Source: Candidatus Omnitrophota bacterium
GTDB taxonomy: Bacteria > Omnitrophota > Gorgyraeia > 2-01-FULL-45-10
DNA: 64,000 nucleotides
Direction of reading: 5' to 3'
NCBI GenBank assembly: GCA_028716065.1
Contig: JAQUQN010000002.1
Coordinates: forward strand, 6,485-70,484
Shown here: positions 35,557-51,281 of the stretch, one piece after another
Position numbering within the stretch: position 1 is the first letter of the stretch
Layout of the letters: the number at the start of each line of letters is the position of its first letter
The notes under the pieces: generated by a model
Databases searched by the model: none
What the model saw: the letters and a program-made list of their open reading frames with translations, nothing else
Told to the model about the DNA's origin: nothing
Program-made: the position numbers and the translations under genes

Positions 35557-35584
35557 TTGACATATTAAAAAAATGTGATATACT
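35557..35584 (+). promoter_or_regulatory. Sigma70-type promoter (TTGACA-N16-TATACT, TGn) for pyrG-carA-carB(N-half)
   Basis: Exact -35 and extended -10 TGa. Confidence 0.6.
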
Positions 35585-35619: not shown

Positions 35620-37294
<1,675 letters not shown>

Positions 37295-37295
37295 C

Positions 37296-38375
37296 ATGAA
37301 AGCGATACTGGCCCTGGAAGACGGAAAAATATTTAAAGGAGATTCCTTCGGAGCGGAAGGCGAAACCTTCGGGGAGGTCGTCTTCAACACGAGCATGGCG
37401 GGCTATCAGGAGATAGTGACCGACCCCTCCTACAAGGGGCAGATCGTGACGATGACCTATCCGTTGATAGGCAATTATGGTGTCAACGCAGAGGACGCGG
37501 AATCATGCAGGCCATTTGCCGAGGCTCTCGTCGTAAAAGAATATTCCAAGGTTGCCTCAAGCTGGCGCAGCCAGAAGTCCCTCGGCGATTATCTCAAGGA
37601 GAATAAAATATTGGGCATAGAAGATATCGATACCCGACAGCTGACCCTTCATATACGAGAGGCCGGGGCGATGAAAGCAGTTCTATCCACCGTCGATTTC
37701 GATGAAGCAAATCTCGTGAGGAAGGCCAAGAAATCTCCCGGACTTATAGGCATAGACCTGGTAAAAGATGTCTCTTCACAAAAGAGACGCGTATGGAACA
37801 CGGAAGGGCGCTACAAGGTAGTTGTTTTGGACTGCGGAGTGAAATTTAATATCTTAAGAGAACTTGCCAAGCGTGACTGCGCCGTTACGGTACTACCGGC
37901 AAGCGCATCCGCTGAAGAGATATTATCACTCAAGCCAAATGGCATATTGTTATCGAATGGTCCGGGGGACCCGGCCGCTGTTCCATATGTCGTCGAGACG
38001 GCCCGGGATCTACTGGGAAAGGTTCCTATATTCGGAATATGCCTGGGCCATCAGATGCTGGGGCAGGCCTTCGGCGGCAAGACATATAAACTCAAATTCG
38101 GCCACCATGGCGGCAACCATCCCGTAAAGGACCTAAAGACAGACAAGGTGGCAATAACGGTTCAAAATCACGGTTTTTGCGTAGACATAGATACCTTGAA
38201 CAAGAAAGAGATCGAGATAACACACATAAATCTGAACGACAAAACACTGGAAGGAATGAGGCATAAGAGACTGCCTGTATTCTCCGTGCAGTTTCATCCG
38301 GAATCTTCGCCGGGCCCCCATGACTCCGAATACCTTTTTTGCAATTTTGTGGAGATGATGAAACGCCATGCCTAA
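37296..38375 (+). CDS. carA: Carbamoyl-phosphate synthase small (glutaminase) subunit, catalytically intact copy
   Basis: Canonical triad context GICLGHQ and [15 protein letters not shown]. Starts 1 nt after the pyrG stop. Confidence 0.9.
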
Positions 38376-40035
38376 GCGAAAGGACATAAAAAAGATACTG
38401 ATCATAGGCTCGGGGCCTATCGTGATAGGCCAGGCATGCGAGTTTGACTATTCCGGATCTCAGGCGTGCAAGGTCCTGAGGCAGGAAGGTTACAAAGTGA
38501 TCCTTGTAAATTCAAATCCCGCCACTATAATGACCGATCCGGAGATGGCGGATAAAACCTACATAGAACCCATAGATGTAGATACCGTCGGAAGGATAAT
38601 CGCAAAGGAGAGACCCGACGCGTTGCTTCCCACGCTAGGGGGACAGACCGCATTGAACACTGCTGTAGGACTTGCCGAGGCGGGTATATTAAAAAAATAT
38701 AAGGTGGAGACGATAGGCGCCAATATAAAAGCGATCAAGAAGGCTGAGGACAGGCGGCTCTTTAAGGAGGCGATGCAGAAGATAGGGCTTGATCTGCCGG
38801 AGAGCGGCAAGGCTTATAACATGAAAGAGGCTTTTGAAACTGCGGAGAAGATAGGGTTTCCCGTCATCATAAGACCGAGCTTTACCCTGGGAGGAAAAGG
38901 CGGGAGCGTCGCATATAATAAAGAGGATTTTAAAGAGCTTGCGAAAATAGGCATTGAATCCAGCATGATAAGCGAGATATTGATAGAGGAATCTGTTATG
39001 GGATGGAAGGAGTTCGAGCTCGAAGTCATGAGGGACGTCAAGGACAATGTAGTAATAATATGTTCTATCGAAAATCTGGATCCTATGGGGATCCACACAG
39101 GGGACAGCATAACGGTCGCGCCCGCCCAGACACTGACCGATAGAGAATACCAGAAGATGAGAGACGCCTCGATAGCATGTATAAGAGAGATAGGGGTTGA
39201 AACCGGCGGATCCAATATACAGTTTGCCGTGAACCCCAAAACGGGCAGGATGGTAGTTATAGAGATGAACCCCAGGGTATCGAGAAGTTCTGCCCTGGCC
39301 TCCAAGGCGACCGGATTTCCGATAGCCAAGATAGCTGCCAAACTGGCGGTCGGTTATACGCTGGATGAAATACCGAACGATATCACGAAGGAGACGCCTG
39401 CATGTTTTGAGCCGGCCATCGACTATTGCGTCGTCAAGATACCGAGGTTTACATTCGAAAAGTTCGCCACGGCAGACCCAACATTGACAATATCGATGAA
39501 ATCCGTGGGAGAGGCGATGGCAATTGGCAGGACTTTCAAGGAAGCGCTACAGAAAGGCCTGCGTTCACTAGAGATTAAAAAATCAGGCCTCGACACCATC
39601 ATCTTTAAGGGGCACGTCGACGATATAAACGCCGATGAGGAGACGAGGGATGAAATCTGTCAAAAGGTTATAATACCAAACTCGGAAAGGATATTTTATA
39701 TCGGCGACGCCCTGAGGGCCGGTATCGATGCCGAAAAGATATGCGAGCTTTCCGGAATAGACCCTTGGTTCATACATAATATCAAAGAAATTATAATCGC
39801 GGAAAAAGAGATCATCTCGGGAAAGGATAAGATGACCGCTGAACTGTTGGCCAAGGCAAAACGGCTGGGTTTCAGTGATATTCAGATCGCCTGCCTGACA
39901 GGCACCAAGGAGAAAGCTATACGCGCCTTAAGAAAAAAATTCGGGATAAATCCTTCCTTCAAGCTCGTCGATACCTGCGCCGCTGAGTTCAGGGCCCACA
40001 CCCCATACTATTACTCAACGTACGATCATCAATAA
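38368..40035 (+). CDS. carB: Half-size CarB: N-terminal (carboxyphosphate) ATP-grasp plus oligomerisation domain only, 555 aa
   Basis: Collinear with residues 1-555 of the full-length carB at 46593. ATP-grasp motifs are intact. Ends ...[18 protein letters not shown], exactly at the half boundary. 8-nt overlap with carA. Confidence 0.85.
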
Positions 40036-40097: not shown

Positions 40098-40562
40098 GTG
40101 CCTAAAAAAATACCCATAATAGAACAGCGCCATTTCATAAGGCACCCTTTGTGCATTCCGCTGGAATATAGAATTCTCGAGAAGACTTCCGACAAAGACT
40201 CACAGCCGCAACGTTCCATGACGATAAATATAAGCCAGGGCGGATTGATGTTTTCTGCGCGCAGGGCCGTGCCGCAGAACCGTATAATCAGCGTCAAGAT
40301 GCCTTTTCAGGATAAGGTATTCAACGTGAGGGCAAAGGTCGTCCATTGCAATAAAAATTCCGATACCAAACTATACAACATCGGTGTATCTTTCTACCGG
40401 TTCACCGACGCCTTCAAAGCGAAATTGATAGAGCAGCTCTATCTGATATCGGAATATCGGGATCTGCGCAGCATACAACTCGGCAGGGACGTCTCGCTGG
40501 AACAGGCCTCTGAGGAATGGATCAAAAGATATTCGGCACGCTTCAAGCGGTTGTATTGGTAA
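40098..40562 (+). CDS. PilZ domain protein
   Basis: GTG start. QRHFIRH and NISQGG motifs. Confidence 0.8.
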   Translation: MPKKIPIIEQRHFIRHPLCIPLEYRILEKTSDKDSQPQRSMTINISQGGLMFSARRAVPQNRIISVKMPFQDKVFNVRAKVVHCNKNSDTKLYNIGVSFYRFTDAFKAKLIEQLYLISEYRDLRSIQLGRDVSLEQASEEWIKRYSARFKRLYW

Positions 40563-40615
40563 AGCATGAAAGCGAGAAAGCCGTTCATAATAGCCCTTAT
40601 CGTAGCAACCGGAAT

Positions 40616-42142
40616 ATGACAAAAAAAACTGGTTTCGATAACGAAAAATATCTGAACGAGCAGACCTCGGCCATAGTAAACAGGGTAAAAAAGTTCGACA
40701 ACAAACTGTATCTAGAGTTCGGGGGCAAGCTCTGTTTCGACTATCACGCCGCGCGCGTCCTTCCTGGATATGACTCCAACGTCAAAATACGGCTCCTGCA
40801 GCTATTGAAAGACAAGATTGATATAGTACTCTCCATATATTCGGGCGATATAGAGAAGGGCAGGGTAAGGGGCGATTTCGGTATCACCTACGACGCCGCC
40901 ACTCTCAAACTGATAGACGACCTGCGAAAATGGGGTCTCGATATCCTCGCCGTAGTCATCACCCGTTTCGCTAATCAGTCCTCGGCCATCATCTTCAAAA
41001 ACAAACTGGAACGTAGGGGTGTCAAGGTATACCTCCATTACCCCATAGACGGGTATCCTACCAATATAGACCGCGTGGTCAGCGACGATGGTTTCGGAAA
41101 GAATGAGTACATCCAGACTAAAAAACCGATAGTGGTCGTTACGGGCCCCGGGCCGAACAGCGGCAAGCTGGCAACGTGCCTTTCCCAGCTCTATCAAGAA
41201 CATAAACGCGGAATAAACGCCGGGTACGCCAAATTCGAAACATTCCCTATCTGGAACATCCCGCTCAAACACCCTGTCAACGTCGCTTATGAAGCGGCTA
41301 CCGCCGATATAATGGACTTCAATCTCGTAGATCCTTTCCATCTAAACGTATATAATGAAACGGCGATAAACTATAATCGCGACGTGGAGAGCTTTCCCAT
41401 ACTCAAGCTGATCCTCAGCAAGATATTCACTAAAAACGCGAACCTGCCGATGTATAACTCTCCTACCGATATGGGGGTAAACAAGGCCGGCTTTGGAATC
41501 ATAGATGATAGCGTGGTCCAGGAGGCCGCGAAACAGGAACTGATAAGAAGGTATTTCAGATATAACACAGAATACGTACTCGGCATAGAGAGAAAAGAGA
41601 CGGTGGATAAGGTAGCTATCCTGATGGAAGAGATGGGCGTCAAGATAACCGACCGCCTCGTAGTGGAGATCGCCAGGAAGACCGCCGAAGAAGCGGAGTC
41701 GAAAGGCAAGGGGCATGCCGGTATACATTGCGGTGCGGCCGTTCAACTCGGGGACGGGCAGCTCATAACGGGTAAAAATTCAAACCTGATGCACGCCGCC
41801 TCGAGCGTCGTCTTGAACGCCATCAAGATGCTCGCGAACATACCGGATGAGATATTACTATTATCACCGCATATAATAAACCAGATCTCGAAATTAAAAG
41901 AGGGCATTCTGAAGGCCGACCCCGAAAGCCTGGACCTCGAAGAGACGCTTATAGCGCTCTCCATAAGCGCTACCACAAACCATACCGCCGAACTTGCCAT
42001 GCAGAAGCTGGTCGCATTAAGAGGATGTGAAATGCACATGACCCACATTCCTACCCCCGGTGACGAAGTCGGTTTAAAAAGGCTGGGCGTAAACCTCACC
42101 ACGGACGGCAAATTCTCATCCCGCAACCTATTCGTAGCCTGA
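40616..42142 (+). CDS. DUF1846 (UPF0371) family protein
   Basis: Start at ATG 40616 (MTKKTGFDNEKYLNEQ), about 508 aa. Family assignment is from memory and was not searched. Confidence 0.7.
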   Translation: MTKKTGFDNEKYLNEQTSAIVNRVKKFDNKLYLEFGGKLCFDYHAARVLPGYDSNVKIRLLQLLKDKIDIVLSIYSGDIEKGRVRGDFGITYDAATLKLIDDLRKWGLDILAVVITRFANQSSAIIFKNKLERRGVKVYLHYPIDGYPTNIDRVVSDDGFGKNEYIQTKKPIVVVTGPGPNSGKLATCLSQLYQEHKRGINAGYAKFETFPIWNIPLKHPVNVAYEAATADIMDFNLVDPFHLNVYNETAINYNRDVESFPILKLILSKIFTKNANLPMYNSPTDMGVNKAGFGIIDDSVVQEAAKQELIRRYFRYNTEYVLGIERKETVDKVAILMEEMGVKITDRLVVEIARKTAEEAESKGKGHAGIHCGAAVQLGDGQLITGKNSNLMHAASSVVLNAIKMLANIPDEILLLSPHIINQISKLKEGILKADPESLDLEETLIALSISATTNHTAELAMQKLVALRGCEMHMTHIPTPGDEVGLKRLGVNLTTDGKFSSRNLFVA

Positions 42143-42989: not shown

Positions 42990-44480
42990 TCATGCAGAAC
43001 CGTTCTTAAAAGATGGGAGGGAGACCGTAAAAGTAGATCCTTTCGAAACCTCGCTCTTCACATCGATCCTTCCATTATGGGTTTCGGCTATGGACCTGGC
43101 TATGCTTAAGCCGAGGCCAAATCCCGCATCGTCTGCGCGCGACTTATCAACGCAATAGAACCTGTCGAAGATGTGGCCGATCTCTTCTCTTGAAATACCA
43201 ACGCCGGTATCGCTTATCTTGACCGTGACAAGATCGCCGTTTGCAACAGCGACGATCTCTATCCTGCCGCCTGGTTCCGTATATTTAACGGCATTATCAA
43301 TGATATTAAGGAAGAGGGTCTTTAACTGATTCTCGTCTCCGTACAAGAAAAGGGGCTTATCATCCTGGCCCAATGAAATCCGTATATTTTTCAATTCGGA
43401 TAGCGTCTTTACATTCTTCATGACGTCATTGAGTAATTGGCCAAGCTCTAACCGCTTCTTTTCGGGCATCATCTGACTCGAATCGAACTTCGCCAGAAAG
43501 AGGAGGTTTTCAGCCAATTTTATTATTTTATTCACTTCCTGAAGCGCGCTCTTCAATATCGATTCATATTCACCCTGAGAACGCATCTTCTTGAGCACGA
43601 CCTCAAATTCACCTTTCAGTATGGTCAGAGGAGTCTTGAGATCATGCGACAAGTTTTCAAAAAGCTGCCTCTGAGCATTAAAAGAGCTCTCGAGGCGTCC
43701 AAGCATGCTGTTGAATGTTTCGGCAAGCTTCTGTATTTCGTCCCTGGTGTCGGGGATGGAGAGTTTCAGCTTCATGTTCTCAGCTGTAATTTGGTGTATG
43801 GTATCTATCATGCTGTCAACGGGGTGGAGCGCCACCTTCGCCAGAAAAGCGCCCATAACTCCCGTGAGCAGAACGGTCGCGGGCAGTATCAATAAGAGGG
43901 CCGCCCTAAGGCTATTGAGGGCAACATGTATGGAGGTCAGTGGACTGGCGACCTGGACTATATAGGCGACCTTCTCCTTTTCAAATATAGGCGTGGTAAA
44001 TACCCTGTACGATTCCCTGTCGGATTGATTGATATCGCCCAACGTATCGAAGCGGGTCTTCCCCTGTAGCACCGTGATAAAATTCTTTCTCGAAATGGTC
44101 GGCATATCTTTGGCTTCGATTGAAGAGGCTATCGTGGCGCCGTCGGTATCGAATACCTGGACAAATATATCCATGAGCCTCGGATCGCTCGTCTCCTTCT
44201 TGACCCAGCGTTGGGCTATCTTCGCGAAATTCACGTTGCGTCTCTTCCGGACCTCATCGGGCTTTACGCCGCTGTCTATGACTTCCAGCTTCGATGCCTC
44301 CCAGTAAGTGTCTATGGCCTGCGCTATGCCTGCCGCCTTTGACTTGAGCAGGGTATCCATGTTGCCATAGAGGCTATTATCGACATTGTGGTAAAGAGCT
44401 ATGCTGATGGCGGCCAGCGTAACCGCCAGTATGGCCATGTACAATATCGTGATCTTGAATCTTATTGATTTTAAAAACAT
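42990..44480 (-). CDS. Sensor histidine kinase (2 TM, HAMP, HisKA, HATPase)
   Basis: H-box FENLSHDLKTPLT, N-box NIIDNAVKYT, G-box GFGLGLSIA. Confidence 0.9.
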   Translation of the reverse strand: MFLKSIRFKITILYMAILAVTLAAISIALYHNVDNSLYGNMDTLLKSKAAGIAQAIDTYWEASKLEVIDSGVKPDEVRKRRNVNFAKIAQRWVKKETSDPRLMDIFVQVFDTDGATIASSIEAKDMPTISRKNFITVLQGKTRFDTLGDINQSDRESYRVFTTPIFEKEKVAYIVQVASPLTSIHVALNSLRAALLLILPATVLLTGVMGAFLAKVALHPVDSMIDTIHQITAENMKLKLSIPDTRDEIQKLAETFNSMLGRLESSFNAQRQLFENLSHDLKTPLTILKGEFEVVLKKMRSQGEYESILKSALQEVNKIIKLAENLLFLAKFDSSQMMPEKKRLELGQLLNDVMKNVKTLSELKNIRISLGQDDKPLFLYGDENQLKTLFLNIIDNAVKYTEPGGRIEIVAVANGDLVTVKISDTGVGISREEIGHIFDRFYCVDKSRADDAGFGLGLSIARSIAETHNGRIDVKSEVSKGSTFTVSLPSFKNGSA

Positions 44481-44486
44481 TGGGGC

Positions 44487-45155
44487 TCACTCTTTCAATA
44501 TGTAGCCTCTGCCGCGTATCGTATGTATCAGCTTCTTGCTAAAACCGGAATCGACCTTTTTCCTCAGATAATTTATATAGACGTCTATGACATTCGTGAA
44601 GGTGTCGAAATCTATATCCCATACGTGCTCCGATATCATCGTCCTGCTTACGACCGTGCCGGCATTCCGCATCAGGTACTCCAGAAGACTGTACTCTTTG
44701 GCGGTCAGTGATATCTCCTTGCCTGATCGCGCCACTTTATGAGTCAGAAGATCCAGCTCAAGATCCCCCACCTGCAGTTTCGTAACGGTGCCGGACTCCT
44801 TTTTCCTGAGTATGACCCTGATCCTGGCGAGCAGTTCCTCGAAAGCAAACGGCTTTGTCAGATAATCGTCGGCTCCAGTATCAAGGCCCACAACCTTGTC
44901 CTTGACCGTATCCTTTGCCGTAAGCATGATAATGGGGGAGGAGACACCTTCCTTCTTCAACTGCCCGCAGAGGCTGAGGCCGTCTATCTTGGGAAGCATG
45001 AGGTCCAGGAGTATGAGGTCGTAGTTGTTGGTCTTGGCCAGAAAATGGCCCTGTTCACCGTCATGGGCCAAATCCACGGCGTAGCCTTCTTCCTTAAGGC
45101 CCCTTTTAATAAAATCCGCTATTTTTCTCTCATCTTCAATGATAAGGATCCGCAT
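44487..45155 (-). CDS. OmpR-family response regulator
   Basis: REC domain (DLILLDLMLP, acceptor Asp) plus a winged-helix C-terminus (TIRGRGY). Confidence 0.95.
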   Translation of the reverse strand: MRILIIEDERKIADFIKRGLKEEGYAVDLAHDGEQGHFLAKTNNYDLILLDLMLPKIDGLSLCGQLKKEGVSSPIIMLTAKDTVKDKVVGLDTGADDYLTKPFAFEELLARIRVILRKKESGTVTKLQVGDLELDLLTHKVARSGKEISLTAKEYSLLEYLMRNAGTVVSRTMISEHVWDIDFDTFTNVIDVYINYLRKKVDSGFSKKLIHTIRGRGYILKE

Positions 45156-45466: not shown

Positions 45467-46606
45467 ATGAAAGCAACGTTAGTTCTGGAAAATGGCAGGT
45501 CCTTTGAGGGTGTTTCAATAGGCGCGCCGGCCGAGAGGATAGGCGAGGTCATTTTAAATACGGCGGTAGTGGGCTATCAGGAGATGATGACCGACCCGGC
45601 AAATGCCGGTAAGTTATTGGCCCTGACTTATCCTTTGATAGGTAATTACGGGGTGGCGAACAAATTTTACGAGTCTAGAAAATGCTGGGTTAACGGATTG
45701 ATCATGAAAGAATGCAGCAGGATATATTCGAACTGGCAGGCAGAGGGTTCCTTCCAGGACTTTCTGAATCATGAAGGGGTCGTCGCCTTGAGCGAAGTCG
45801 ACACGAGAACTCTGGCCGTTGAATTACGTAATCACGGAGAGATGATGGGTATCATAACGAGCGAGCCGCTCGATGGGCAGAAGGCGATAAAAAAACTGCG
45901 AGAGCATAAAAAGAAGGGCAAAAATAATTTTATAAGCAATATCTCCGTGAAGGCCATAACCGAAGTAGAGACCGGCTCCAGGGGGCCAAGGGTCGCGGTG
46001 CTTGACCTTGGCATGCTGAAGAGCTTCACCGCCCAATTGAAGAGCCTTAAATGCGGCGTGGCCCTGTTGCCCTACAACATAACGCCCAAAGAGATCCTGG
46101 CCATAAAACCGGACGGCCTCGTAATATCCAGCGGGCCGGAGGACGATGCTGCCATACCCGAGATCATCAAGACCGTGAACGGCGTGCTTGGAAAAATTCC
46201 TATATTGGGCATATCTTTAGGACATGAGCTCATCGCGCTTGCGTTGGGCGGCAAAGTGAAAAAGATGAAGCTGGGGCACCGAGGAGTAAACTATCCGGTA
46301 AAGCCGGCGGATTCGTTTAAGGGCGAGATAACGACGCAAAATCATAGCTACATCGTTGACGAGGACTCAATAAGAAGAAAGAAGGCCGTAGAAATAACCC
46401 TGAGAAATATAAACGACGGCTCCATAGAGGAGATGGAAAGCAAGAGCTTGAAGTTCATCTCGACACAATACTATCCGGTCAGCCCCGGTTTCGGGGAGGT
46501 CAACAATGTCTTCTTGCGATTTTTGAAATTGCTAAACCCTTCCGGGAGAGCGGGGATAAAAACGAAGAAAAATAAACAACTTGAGGTGAGCTATGCCAAA
46601 ACGTAA
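45467..46606 (+). CDS. carA: CarA-like subunit with the glutaminase catalytic triad lost (pseudo-glutaminase)
   Basis: Full-length CarA fold, but GICLGHQ is GISLGHE (Ser250, codon TCT 46214-46216) and QFHPE is QYYPV (Tyr336, Val338). 14-nt overlap with full-length carB. Confidence 0.85.
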
Positions 46607-49600
46607 GGATATACATAAAATACTGATGATAGGCTCCGGCCCAATAGTCATCGGCCAGGCATGCGAATTTGACTATTCCGGCTCCCAGGCATGCAAGGCG
46701 TTAAAAGAAGAGGGGTATCGCACCATACTCGTGAATTCGAACCCCGCCACCATCATGACCGATCCCAACATGGCCGACGTCACATATATAGAGCCCCTCA
46801 CGGTGGAGGCGGTTACCGAGATAATAAAAAAGGAAAGGCCTGACGCCATCCTTCCCACTCTTGGCGGCCAGACCGGACTGAACCTGGCATTCTTCCTGAT
46901 GAAGGAAGGGATATTGAAAAAATACGGAGTCGAATCGATAGGCGCAAATGTCGATGCCATCTCGCGGGCCGAAGACAGGGAGCTGTTCAAAAAGGCCATG
47001 CTCGAGATAGGCATAGATGTCCCAAAAAGCGGTATCGCCACCACTATAGAAGAGGGCATAAAGATAGGGCTCGGTATAGGGTTTCCGCTCATCTTAAGGC
47101 CGGCCTACACGCTCGGGGGCACGGGCGGATCCATAGCGTATAATAAAGAAGAGCTGGAGCTCTTCCTGGCCAAGGGCATAGAATTGAGCCCCGTGGGCCA
47201 GATCCTGGTGGAACAATCTGTCCTGGGCTGGAAAGAGATAGAATTTGAAGTTATGCGGGATTGCGTCGATAACGTCATCATGATAACATCGATGGAGAAT
47301 GTCGACCCCATGGGCGTCCATACAGGCGACAGCATCGTCGTCGCTCCATCGCAGACCCTGACCAAAGAGGAATATGCTCAGTTCGTAAACCTGTCCAAGA
47401 AGATAATAAGGAAGATAGGCATAACCGGAGGGGGCGCCAATATCCAGTTTGCGCAAAACCCCGCCAATGGCCATATAGTTATAATCGAGGTGAACCCGCG
47501 CCTCTCCAGAAGCTCTGCCCTGGCATCGAAGGCCACGGGATTTCCTATCGCGCGCGTCGCCACCAAGCTGGCTGTTGGGCTGACGCTTCCGGAGGTCCTC
47601 AATCAGATAACGGGCGGGACGAAGGCCTTTTTCGAACCGACGGTTGATTATTGCGTCTTCAAGATATGCAGGTTCACGTTTGAGAAATTTCCGCAGACTA
47701 ACAGGACGCTGAATACCTCCATGAAGGCGGTGGGAGAGGCGATGTCCATAGGGAGAAACTTCAAAGAGGCCCTCCAGAAAGGCATAAGGTCGACCGAGAT
47801 CCGAAGGTTCGGGCTGGGTTGTGACGGCCGGGACAAGATAACGGATGAAAACATCGAATCTCCCGGAGCGGATACCATACAGACCATAAAAGAGAAGATA
47901 CGCCTTCCCAACGACGACAGGCTATTCTATATAAGATACGCCCTTAAGCTGGGAATGACGGCCGAGGAGATATATGAATTGTCCAGGATCGACATGTGGT
48001 TTATCGACAACTTAAAGCAGATCGTGGAATTAGAAGAAGGCCTCAAGAACTACCGCAAGACCAGCCAGAAGGGTTCTATAAAGATCCCTCCCGCGGTACT
48101 TCTGGAGGCGAAGAAATACGGATTTTCAGATGTACAGATCGCGTTCCTTACAAAATCCAGCGAAAAAGAGGTGAGAGAATTGAGAAAGAGGCATGATATA
48201 AAACCTACTTATAAATTGGTAGATACATGCGCGGGGGAGATCAAGGCCAAACAGCCCTATTATTACTCTACCTATGAGACCGAAGACGAAAGCCGCCCGA
48301 CGAAGAACAAGAAGGTCCTGATCCTGGGTGGAGGCCCCAACAGGATCGGCCAAGGCATAGAGTTCGATTACTGCTGCTGCCACGCATCATACGCCCTGAA
48401 AGAAGAGGGGATAGAGAGCATCATGGTCAATTGTAACCCTGAAACAGTCTCCACGGATTATGATACATCCGATAAGTTATATTTTGAGCCGCTTACCGTG
48501 GAAGATGTGATGAATATAGTGGACAACGAAAAACCGATAGGGGCAATAGTACAGTTCGGAGGCCAGACGCCCCTGAATATTTCGGGCGAATTACACAAGA
48601 TGGGCCTCAATATATTAGGCACCAGCCCGGACTCAATCGATATCGCTGAGGACAGGAAACGCTTCCAGCAGATGCTGAAGAAACTTAAACTGGTCCAACC
48701 CGATAACGGAACGGCGACCTCTTTCGAGGAGGCAAAGAAGATCGCGCATACGATAGGGTATCCCGTGGTAGTAAGGCCTTCTTACGTGCTGGGTGGCAGG
48801 GCGATGGAGATAGTTTATGATGAAAAGGCCCTGTGCGATTATATGGAAAGGGCCACGGAGGCTTCGCCCGAAAAACCCATATTGATCGATAAATTCCTCG
48901 AAGACGCCATAGAGGTTGATGTCGACGCCATAGCCGACGGTAAAAGATGCGTGATAGGAGGATTCCTTGAGCATATAGAGGAGGCGGGGATCCATTCGGG
49001 CGACAGCGCGATGGTGCTCCCTCCGCATACCCTGGGCAAGGATATCATAGACACCATAAAGAAAAATACCTATGCGATGGCAAAGGAGCTGAAGGTCAAG
49101 GGCCTCATGAACGTGCAATACGCCGTAAAAAACAACATAGTCTATGTGCTGGAAGTAAACCCGAGGGCCAGCAGGACCGTTCCGTTCGTCTCTAAGGCGA
49201 TAGGCATACCCCTGGCAAAACTCGCCACGAAGATAATGCTGGGCAAGACATTGGATGAACTCGGTTTTACAAAAGAGAAAAATATAAATTTTGTCGTGGT
49301 CAAAGAATCTGTATTCCCCTTCATAAGGTTCCCTGGCGCGGACGCCATATTGGGCCCTGAAATGAAATCTACCGGTGAGGTAATGGGCATGGACTCTACA
49401 TTCGGCATGGCTTACGCTAAAAGCCAGTTAGCGGCCGGCCAGAAACTGCCTAAAAAAGGCAATGTCTTTATAAGCGTAAAAAACCAGGACAAGAGAAACA
49501 TGGTATTCGTGGCAAAGAAGCTTTCCGATCTTGGCTTTAAGATCCTGGCCACTATAGGGACCGCTGAGGCTCTGAGGAGCAATGACATAGAGGTCCGGGT

Positions 49601-49862
49601 ATTGCCAAAGCTTCATGAAGGCCGGCCCAATATCATAGATTTTATAAAGGATAATAAAGTCCATCTAATCATAAATACCCCTGCGGGAAAGGCCACGAAA
49701 GAGGACGAGTCTAAAATAAGGGCCCATGCGATCCTTTATAATGTTCCGCTCATAACCACGGTTTCGGGCGCGCAGGCATCCGTAAACGGAATAGAAAATC
49801 TGATTAAAAAACCTGAGATGTCCGTAAGGTCTCTGCAGGATTACCACAAGAAGATAAAATAG
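46593..49862 (+). CDS. carB: Carbamoyl-phosphate synthase large subunit (full length)
   Basis: 1089 aa with both ATP-grasp halves and a C-terminal MGS-like allosteric domain. Confidence 0.95.
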
Positions 49863-49880: not shown

Positions 49881-51281
49881 ATGAAAGAGTATTGCGGAGT
49901 TGTCGGTATCTTCGGCCATAAAGACGCTGCGCGGCTGGCATACCTGGCGCTCTATGCCTTGCAGCACAGGGGAGAAGAATCCGCTGGGATAGTCAGCTTC
50001 GACAGAAAAAAAGTCTATACCCATAAAGGCATGGGCCTCGTAGGCAATGTATTCAGTGAGGAAGGATTAAAAAAATTAAAGGGGCCCATGGCAATAGGCC
50101 ATGTAAGATATTCTACGACGGGCTCGAGCACCACCAAGAATATCCAGCCATTATTGATAAATCATAAAAAAGGGTTCATTGCGGTAGCCCACAACGGAAA
50201 TCTCACGAATTCCGTTGAGCTGCAAAATGAACTCGAAGATTCCGGATCGATACTTCAGACCTCGATGGACTCCGAACTGATAATCCATCTTCTGGTCAGG
50301 GACCAGAAAAATAATTATAGGGAGAAGATGATACCCATCCTGTCGAGGCTTGAAGGGGCCTACGCATTCGTCTTCATGATTAATGACACCATCTATGCCG
50401 TAAGGGATCCATACGGTTTCAGGCCCCTTTCCATAGCGAAAGCGGAAGACGCCTACGTCGTTGCCAGCGAGACCTGCGCCTTCGACATGATACGCGCCAA
50501 ATACGTGCGTGATGTGGAGCCCGGGGAAGTCGTAATGATAAACAAGGACGGCCTGACATCGCTCGGCCACATACCCGGAAAGAGACACGCCTTCTGTATA
50601 TTTGAATATATATACTTCGCGCGCCCCGACAGCAATATCTTTACGAAAAGCGTCTATCTGACGAGGAAGAACCTGGGCAGGGCCCTTGCCAGAGAGCACC
50701 CCGTCGGAGCCGATATAGTGATGCCGATACCCGACTCGGGCACATACGCCGCCCTCGGTTATGCCGAGGAATCCAAGATACCTCTTGAGATGGCTTTCGT
50801 AAGAAACCATTACATAGGAAGGACATTCATACAGCCCAGCCAATTCATAAGAGATTTCAAGGTGCGTGTAAAGCTGAATCCCGTCAGGGATGCCTTGAAA
50901 GATAAACGAATCGTCATAATCGAGGATTCTATAGTCAGGGGCACTACCTCGAGGAGCAGGGTAAGGGCGCTCAAGGAGGCAGGGGCACGCGAGATACACA
51001 TGAGGGTCAGTTGTCCGCCGTTAATATCGCCATGTTTTTACGGGATAGACTTCCCGACCAAAAAAGAGCTCATAGCCTCCAGCCATAAGATCGAAGAGAT
51101 AAGGCAGTTCATAGGGCTGGACAGCCTTGAATATTTAAGTATTGAAGGCATGCTGAATTCCATGCTTCTTCCGAAAGAGGAATTCTGCACCGCCTGTTTT
51201 TCAGGAGATTATCCGACCAGGATATGCAAGCCACCGTCAAAAAAGGCGCTCGAAAAGAGCCGCTGCATGGGGATAAAATAA
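49881..51281 (+). CDS. purF: Amidophosphoribosyltransferase
   Basis: N-terminal [11 protein letters not shown] (Ntn Cys) and PRTase motif [12 protein letters not shown]. Confidence 0.95.

Follow-up and report, generated by a model that had tools for sequence, protein, structure and literature searches.

Where does a carbamoyl phosphate synthetase (CPS) find its second synthetase module when the gene for the large subunit stops at its midpoint? This question is raised by a stretch of 64,000 nucleotides, referred to below as the window, from a Candidatus Omnitrophota bacterium (GenBank assembly GCA_028716065.1, contig JAQUQN010000002.1, positions 6,485 to 70,484 of the forward strand). In the window an intact carA gene is followed by a carB gene of half size, here called carB-N. 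The answer that we consider probable is that the products of carA and carB-N form the front end of a split CPS, that the C-terminal half (C-half) encoded next to purF is its second module, that the split enzyme is of chimeric origin and that the window shows a redundant intermediate on the way to it. The two genes are:

37296-38375, + strand: carA, 359 aa, glutamine-hydrolysing small subunit with an active-type triad (Cys in GICLGHQ, His and Glu in FHPE)
38368-40035, + strand: carB-N, 555 aa, with pre-ATP-grasp, ATP-grasp (carboxyphosphate/carbamate-forming) and oligomerisation domains

The carA and carB-N genes

The carA product is matched by TIGR01368 at 520 bits in an NCBIfam profile search and is 67-75% identical to the carA products that adjoin a half-size carB on the Omnitrophota contigs L001-L008. 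The Pfam content of carB-N is limited to CPSase_L_D1, CPSase_L_D2 and CPSase_L_D3, and its match to the NCBIfam profile PRK05294 spans positions 1-542 of 1058. Residues 1-549 of E. coli CarB (1BXR) are matched at 730 bits, with no gaps up to residue ~340, and all ten ATP-grasp residues that were checked are kept (R129, R169, E215, H243, N283, Q285, E299, N301, R303 and R306).

The window also encodes a full-length CarB (46593-49862). In BLASTP, carB-N is 60% identical to the N half of this protein (residues 1-564) and 37% identical to the C half. The initial annotation of this locus, which was made from the sequence and a list of open reading frames (ORFs), had put the first of these figures at roughly 65%; the kinship with the N half holds and the figure was slightly high. 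The C-terminus of carB-N (...YYYSTYDHQ*) aligns to residue 564 of the full-length copy, which is exactly the junction between the two halves.

The two genes share 8 nt (ATGCCTAA). Upstream, the ATG of carA lies only 1 nt past the stop of pyrG (37294); downstream, a PilZ gene starts at 40098, 62 nt past the stop of carB-N. A tblastn search of the 64-kb window found no remnant of a C-half outside the full-length carB gene. In all these respects the description in the initial annotation was accurate: the ORFs, the intact carA, the overlapping start of a half-size carB with intact ATP-grasp motifs, the stop at the half boundary, the lack of a C-half remnant ahead of PilZ and the placement in the pyrG cluster. 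Judged by its sequence, the carA/carB-N pair appears intact, coupled and clearly functional.

A conserved half-size family

An identical protein is annotated in a metagenome-assembled genome (MAG) of a Candidatus Omnitrophica bacterium. That search yielded 24 clusters of half-size proteins (553-561 aa, 79-82% identity), and where a source is named it is an Omnitrophica/Omnitrophota MAG. Ten half-size loci (L001-L008, L015 and L034) came out of a scan of the GTDB species genomes; all remaining matches were full-length carB genes. Across Omnitrophota the identity within the half-size family is 73-82%.

All nine orthologs of carB-N with a complete end stop no more than 5 codons (0-5) from the same ...YSTY motif. 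A canonical two-subunit CarAB was ruled out, since the product of 555 aa, with a clean stop kept in nine orthologs, compares with a large subunit of ~1070 aa. Nonsynonymous divergence (dN) between carB-N orthologs is 0.12-0.20 and synonymous divergence (dS) is saturated, so that no dN/dS ratio can be computed and dN alone is given.

Neighbor-joining (NJ) trees group the half-size proteins in a single clade with support from 25 of 25 bootstraps, and this clade is nested among the N-halves of ordinary full-length CarB proteins. From these results together we read carB-N as a conserved, selected and derived truncation and not as a relic of the enzyme that preceded the CarB duplication. The suggestion in the initial annotation of an 'ancestral-type mini-CPS' is not supported by the same tree. 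One member of the clade, L034 (CAYHRM010000004.1), is an Omnitrophota-type carA-carB-N pair with 75% identity in a MAG labelled 'uncultured Planctomycetales'; this taxonomic label, or the binning, may be wrong.

A second CPS gene set next to purF

The full-length CarB of the window, encoded 6.5 kb downstream of carB-N, belongs to a second set of genes:

45467-46606, + strand: carA*, small-subunit paralog without the catalytic triad (Cys to Ser, His to Tyr, Glu to Val)
46593-49862, + strand: carB*, the full-length CarB, 1089 aa, with modules N* and C*
46593-48287, + strand: N* module of carB*, residues 1-565, a divergent, intact N half with the catalytic residues kept
48288-49862, + strand: C* module of carB*, residues 566-1089, with the carbamate-phosphorylating ATP-grasp and an MGS-like allosteric domain
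49881-51281, + strand: purF (TIGR01134, 530 bits), the synteny anchor of the C-half locus and no part of the enzyme

The start of carB* is overlapped for 14 nt by carA*. In CarA* the motifs GISLGHE and YYPV replace GICLGHQ and FHPE, and its best match in the PDB is the inactive C269S chain from E. coli. The loss of the triad is not peculiar to this genome. The carA* family has more than 120 clusters with 58-67% identity, those with a named source being Omnitrophica/Omnitrophota and one Ratteibacteria, and the same Ser/Tyr/Val replacements appear in the consensus of 40 carA* relatives (GIS(T)GHE ... QYYPVSPGF). With the triad lost, CarA* is predicted to be incapable of hydrolysing glutamine by the known mechanism. 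Among the CPS-type glutaminases of the window, CarA (37296-38375) is then alone in having a catalytic triad, which agrees with the earlier view that it is the only glutamine-using CPS partner if CarA* is dead.

On contig L086 (Omnitrophica WOR_2 SM23_29) carA* and a full-length carB stand inside a pyrB-pyrC-...-pyrK-pyrD-pyrF-pyrE cluster, and this carA* is the only carA visible there. Together with the family-wide loss of the triad, this suggests that the carA* family and its carB form a bacterial CPS I-like, ammonia-dependent CPS in which the glutaminase is kept as a pseudo-enzyme scaffold. The carB* gene of the window is orthologous over its full length to the carA*-linked carB genes of L083, L085 and L086 (identity 78-86% for N* and 78-88% for C*).

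Free-standing C-half genes in sister genomes

The initial annotation had held that a separate C-half gene elsewhere would make this an ordinary split carB. Seven contigs from sister genomes (L002, L005, L088, L089, L090, L092 and L093) contain both an ortholog of carB-N and a free-standing C-half gene of ~520 aa. The C-half lies at +8 kb from carB-N in L002, +0.3 kb in L005, +3.4 kb in L088 and L089, +5 kb in L090 and +4.6 kb in L093. On L005 (Omnitrophica RIFCSPLOWO2_01_FULL_45_10) pyrG-carA-carB-N is followed by a gap of 342 nt, the C-half gene and purF-guaA. The 520-aa C-half gene of L002 is located directly before purF, downstream of carB-N, and the free C-half genes of L088, L089, L090 and L093 are likewise directly before purF. 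On L092 (1-2093) the end of carB-N (...YYYSTYDK*) overlaps the start of the C-half gene by 4 nt, and purF comes next; this contig shows another way of rearranging the locus. Among the stand-alone C-halves, that of L092 comes nearest to C* of L085, which is fused (NJ distance 0.096). The order pyrG-carA-carB-N is kept in L001, L005, L088, L089, L090 and L093.

A protein search with the C-half of L002 found at least 77 clusters of stand-alone C-halves of 519-546 aa, each with its own Met a few residues before the shared C-half sequence. The free C-halves in sister genomes therefore mark the half-size family as the N subunit of a split CPS. For its part, carB-N of the window has the domain content, the intact residues, the purifying selection and the active-type glutaminase partner of such a subunit.

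The C* module and the free C-halves share the slot directly upstream of purF, which comes after either a stand-alone C-half or carB* in L002, L005, L083, L085 and L088-L093. In the tree, C* of the window is sister to the C-half of L002. No remnants of carA* or N* were found upstream of the free C-half genes in L002, L005, L088, L089 and L090, where the only match was the expected paralogous one inside the C gene. The 64-kb window itself has no separate C-half gene; its sole C half is fused inside carB* (46593-49862). 'Ordinary split carB' is thus not the whole story in the window, where the ortholog of the free C-half is the C-terminal half of a full-length carB.

The free C-half ORFs of L002 (19581-21143) and L093 (16231-17790) are intact and yet absent from the called-gene tables of the NCBI records. 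Annotation pipelines may drop half-size carB C genes or flag them as incomplete, which may lead to false pathway gaps.

Probable chimeric origin and recurrence of the split

The stand-alone carB-C proteins of L002, L005, L088, L090, L092 and L093 are 82-87% identical to C* of the window. The sisters of the half-size N clade are ordinary long CarB proteins, and their C parts are only ~70% identical to C*. Because of this difference the split enzyme appears to be chimeric: its N subunit would come from an ordinary carAB operon and its C subunit from the older carA*-carB* paralog with the dead glutaminase.

We analyzed 119 C-halves in an NJ tree. Fused (N*-C) and free forms interleave in this tree, and Fitch parsimony counts 19 changes between the fused and the free state (16-22 across 30 bootstraps). 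The nearest pairs of free and fused C-halves are ~92% identical. The most basal branches and all of the outgroups are fused.

A second genome with both gene sets is GCA_041643025.1, in which pyrG-carA-carB-N is on L001 and carA*-carB* (1089 aa)-purF on another contig (L085). In the window genome and in GCA_041643025.1 alike, the C-half beside purF has remained joined to N* and follows carA*, so that each appears to represent a redundant stage in the transition to the split enzyme. The simplest reading of the data has three steps. The starting state would be carA*-carB* alone; carA-carB-N would then be gained behind pyrG, which is the state of the window; and repeated loss of carA* and N* would finally leave the chimeric split enzyme. 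The direction of these events is inferred.

Tandem carB genes were considered as another source of N*. Two full-length copies each are present in L014 (6621-13255), L029 (8164-14653) and L036 (8194-14854), from Pelovirga, Planctomycetia and Omnitrophota genomes. The second copies are divergent, with an N half ~57% identical to CarB-N of the window and a C half 58-65% identical to C*. As these second copies form a separate clade, distinct from N*/C*, they were rejected as the origin of N*.

Proposed mechanism and arguments against it

In the proposed mechanism CarA would hydrolyse glutamine and pass NH3 to CarB-N, which would use ATP and bicarbonate to form carboxyphosphate and from it carbamate. 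A second ATP-grasp module would phosphorylate the carbamate to carbamoyl phosphate, and in this Omnitrophota lineage that module would be the C-half (ATP-grasp plus allosteric domain) encoded beside purF. Sister genomes with a free C-half of ~520 aa would make an Aquifex-like enzyme of three subunits. The window genome would have a complete and presumably ammonia-dependent CarA*-CarB* enzyme plus the glutamine-using front end CarA-CarB-N. Lineages have repeatedly dropped carA* and N* and kept C; because of this CarB-N was presumably able to work with C* before the deletion. The same observations lead us to infer for the window genome that CarB-N and C* can pair physically and that C* can serve CarA-CarB-N as its second module.

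Several points weigh against this explanation. The C module of the window is covalently joined to N*, and in canonical CarB the N half already packs on the C half, which makes it hard to see how CarB-N would gain access to C*. No in-frame ATG, GTG or TTG from which a free C* product could be made was found in the linker between N* and C*. In the two genomes with both sets N* is not relaxed relative to C* (86% versus 88% identity). Both front ends appear to be maintained, a situation that also fits two independent enzymes. The view covers 64 kb of the genome, and a free C-half or other partners could be located elsewhere. Finally, the trees are crude, being NJ trees on protein distances, and recombination or transfer at the purF locus could make independent losses seem more numerous than they were.

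We can offer only tentatively two more specific versions: that one C* back end is shared by two alternative front ends, CarB-N with the live CarA and N* with the dead CarA*, or that CarA-CarB-N alone is a homodimeric, half-size, glutamine-dependent CPS. A shared C* would create a CPS that is able to switch between glutamine and free ammonia. In either case the locus would be a natural demonstration that CPS halves of different paralogs are interchangeable. It would also be an example of a multidomain enzyme that was split through duplication and then complementary loss.

Alternative explanations

A self-sufficient enzyme, in which two CarA-CarB-N units pair via their synthetase domains so that carbamate formed by one is phosphorylated by the other with no need for CarB*, is in our view unlikely. 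It would be in line with the failure to find a free C-half in the window, with the retention of all checked catalytic residues and of the oligomerisation domain in CarB-N, and with the conservation of N*, which is consistent with CarA*-CarB* as a separate complete enzyme. Precedents for a single module exist as well: according to the review PMC6022934 the isolated Aquifex halves do both ATP-dependent partial reactions, and Methanobrevibacter smithii has a dimeric 41-kDa CPS. However, the same review attributes the full glutamine-dependent reaction of Aquifex to a mix of all three subunits. On each of the seven sister contigs with a stand-alone C-half, this half has outlasted N* and carA*, although it would be dispensable if CarA-CarB-N sufficed, and carB-N is a derived truncation rather than the ancestral form. 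A single-module CPS would also be expected in a genome with no other synthetase half, and as an ATP-grasp subdomain alone of ~40 kDa. Here the genome encodes, 6.5 kb downstream, a full-length CarB whose C half is intact, and the half-size protein has 555 aa including CPSase_L_D3.

We give little credence to an ordinary split carB with its free C-half gene elsewhere in the genome, beyond the 64-kb window, and with CarA*-CarB* as an unrelated second CPS. Free C-halves are common in the clade, and the sequence that was read is 64 kb of a 72.6-kb contig. In the sister genomes, however, the free C-half is always directly upstream of purF; in the window this slot is filled by carB*, the C half of which is the ortholog (82-87%). 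Any additional C gene would have to be a duplicate, and none of the loci showed one.

It is very improbable that CarA-CarB-N has an accessory role, making no carbamoyl phosphate itself and instead supplying NH3 or carbamate to CarA*-CarB*, or acting as its regulatory or oligomerisation partner, and so restoring the use of glutamine. The absence of the triad from CarA*, the retention of the D3 oligomerisation domain in CarB-N and the co-occurrence of both sets in two genomes could be explained in this way. However, genomes without N* and carA* still keep CarA-CarB-N. In E. coli CPS, as in known CPS structures generally, the tunnels for ammonia and carbamate are intramolecular, and we know of no precedent for channelling between CPS complexes.

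A decaying or non-functional truncated duplicate, raised in the initial annotation and compatible with the half length and a full-length paralog 6.5 kb away, can hardly be credited given the conservation in 24 clusters, the stop position shared by nine genomes, the intact residues, a dN far below the saturated dS, the translational coupling to an intact carA and the fact that the N half which is repeatedly lost is that of the full-length paralog.

Genomic context

The genes and sites around the two CPS sets in the window include:

35557-35584, + strand: promoter-like site TTGACA-16-TATACT with TG extension, 11/12 match to the consensus, upstream of pyrG
35681-37294, + strand: pyrG (CTP synthase; PRK05380, 857 bits), first gene of the cluster

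The promoter-like site is, by its consensus match, a candidate start of the pyrG-carA-carB-N transcript. No terminator-like site was found on the + strand downstream of it up to 40700, i.e. as far as the PilZ gene. Regulatory RNAs and tRNAs were not found within the window.

The PilZ gene (40098-40562) and a mechanically called DUF1846 ORF (40517-42142) overlap by 46 nt. The match to the DUF1846 family begins only at residue 36, and the true start is probably further downstream than the start of the ORF. DUF1846 (PRK13663) recurs beside the CPS/purF cluster: besides the window (40517-42142) it occurs in L002 (14069-15619), L083 (18049-19566), L085 (8276-9799) and L093 (14458-16008). Divergent from carA*, on the - strand at 42990-45155, are genes for a HAMP/HisKA/HATPase sensor kinase and an OmpR-type response regulator; the junction between the regulator and carA* recurs in an independent Logan assembly (L094).

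Comparison with known CPS systems

The closest parallel is the split CPS of Aquifex aeolicus, which is described as having separate GLN, CPS.A and CPS.B genes (Ahuja et al. 2001, via PMC6022934). As in Aquifex, the cut in CarB falls at the boundary behind the oligomerisation domain, a small subunit of the active type has its own gene, and the N and C genes need not be linked; exactly the Aquifex layout of three genes is present in the sister genomes with a free C-half. Unlike in Aquifex, the Omnitrophota halves come, on the chimeric reading, from two different paralogous CPS lineages, and the C half of the window is not free but part of one protein with a second N half, next to a dead glutaminase. 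Aquifex is moreover a hyperthermophile, whereas the host here belongs to a mesophilic Omnitrophota lineage.

Methanocaldococcus jannaschii also has a split carB, with neighboring N and C genes. The adjoining N and C genes in L005 (gap of 342 nt) and L092 (overlap of 4 nt) resemble this arrangement. In the window, by contrast, 6.5 kb separate the two halves, and the C part belongs to a fusion with N*.

Like E. coli CarAB (PDB 1BXR, 1JDB), CarB-N has all catalytic residues and CarA has a Cys-His-Glu triad, but CarB-N is without residues ~553-1073, which form the carbamoyl-phosphate and allosteric domains. CarA* resembles mammalian CPS I (PDB 5DOT) and the E. coli CarA variant C269S (PDB 1C30, 1C3O) in that the glutaminase scaffold is kept with Cys changed to Ser. 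It differs from both in being a separate bacterial subunit in which His and Glu are lost as well.

Engineered E. coli GLN-CPS.A constructs, credited to Guy and Evans in 1996, reportedly pair with themselves. The 41-kDa CPS of M. smithii is likewise reported to be dimeric (Popa 2012, via PMC6022934). Like these proteins, CarB-N is a single synthetase module that might self-pair for both phosphorylations. Unlike them, it has 61 kDa and an oligomerisation domain, there is a second synthetase half in the genome, and the sister genomes retain a C half.

Implications

Split carB genes as such are already known. What was unexpected is the apparent intermediate, the mixed ancestry proposed for the two halves and the repeated resolution into a split. 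A full-text search of the literature returned no report on Omnitrophota CPS, on split carB outside Aquifex, on CPS gene fission or on a split carB that arose via complementation between paralogs.

The usual assumption is that a split carB originates from one gene that was cut in two. Our data point to another route, in which an ordinary second copy of carAB lost its C half and the resident paralog with the dead glutaminase then repeatedly lost its N half. In the state represented by the window both front ends coexist. The locus is therefore a natural test case for an old question about CPS, namely whether its homologous halves are interchangeable or whether one half can pair with itself. For Omnitrophota in general, carB genes of half size run the risk of being taken for fragments or pseudogenes, and this may create false gaps in reconstructions of the arginine and pyrimidine pathways of these bacteria.

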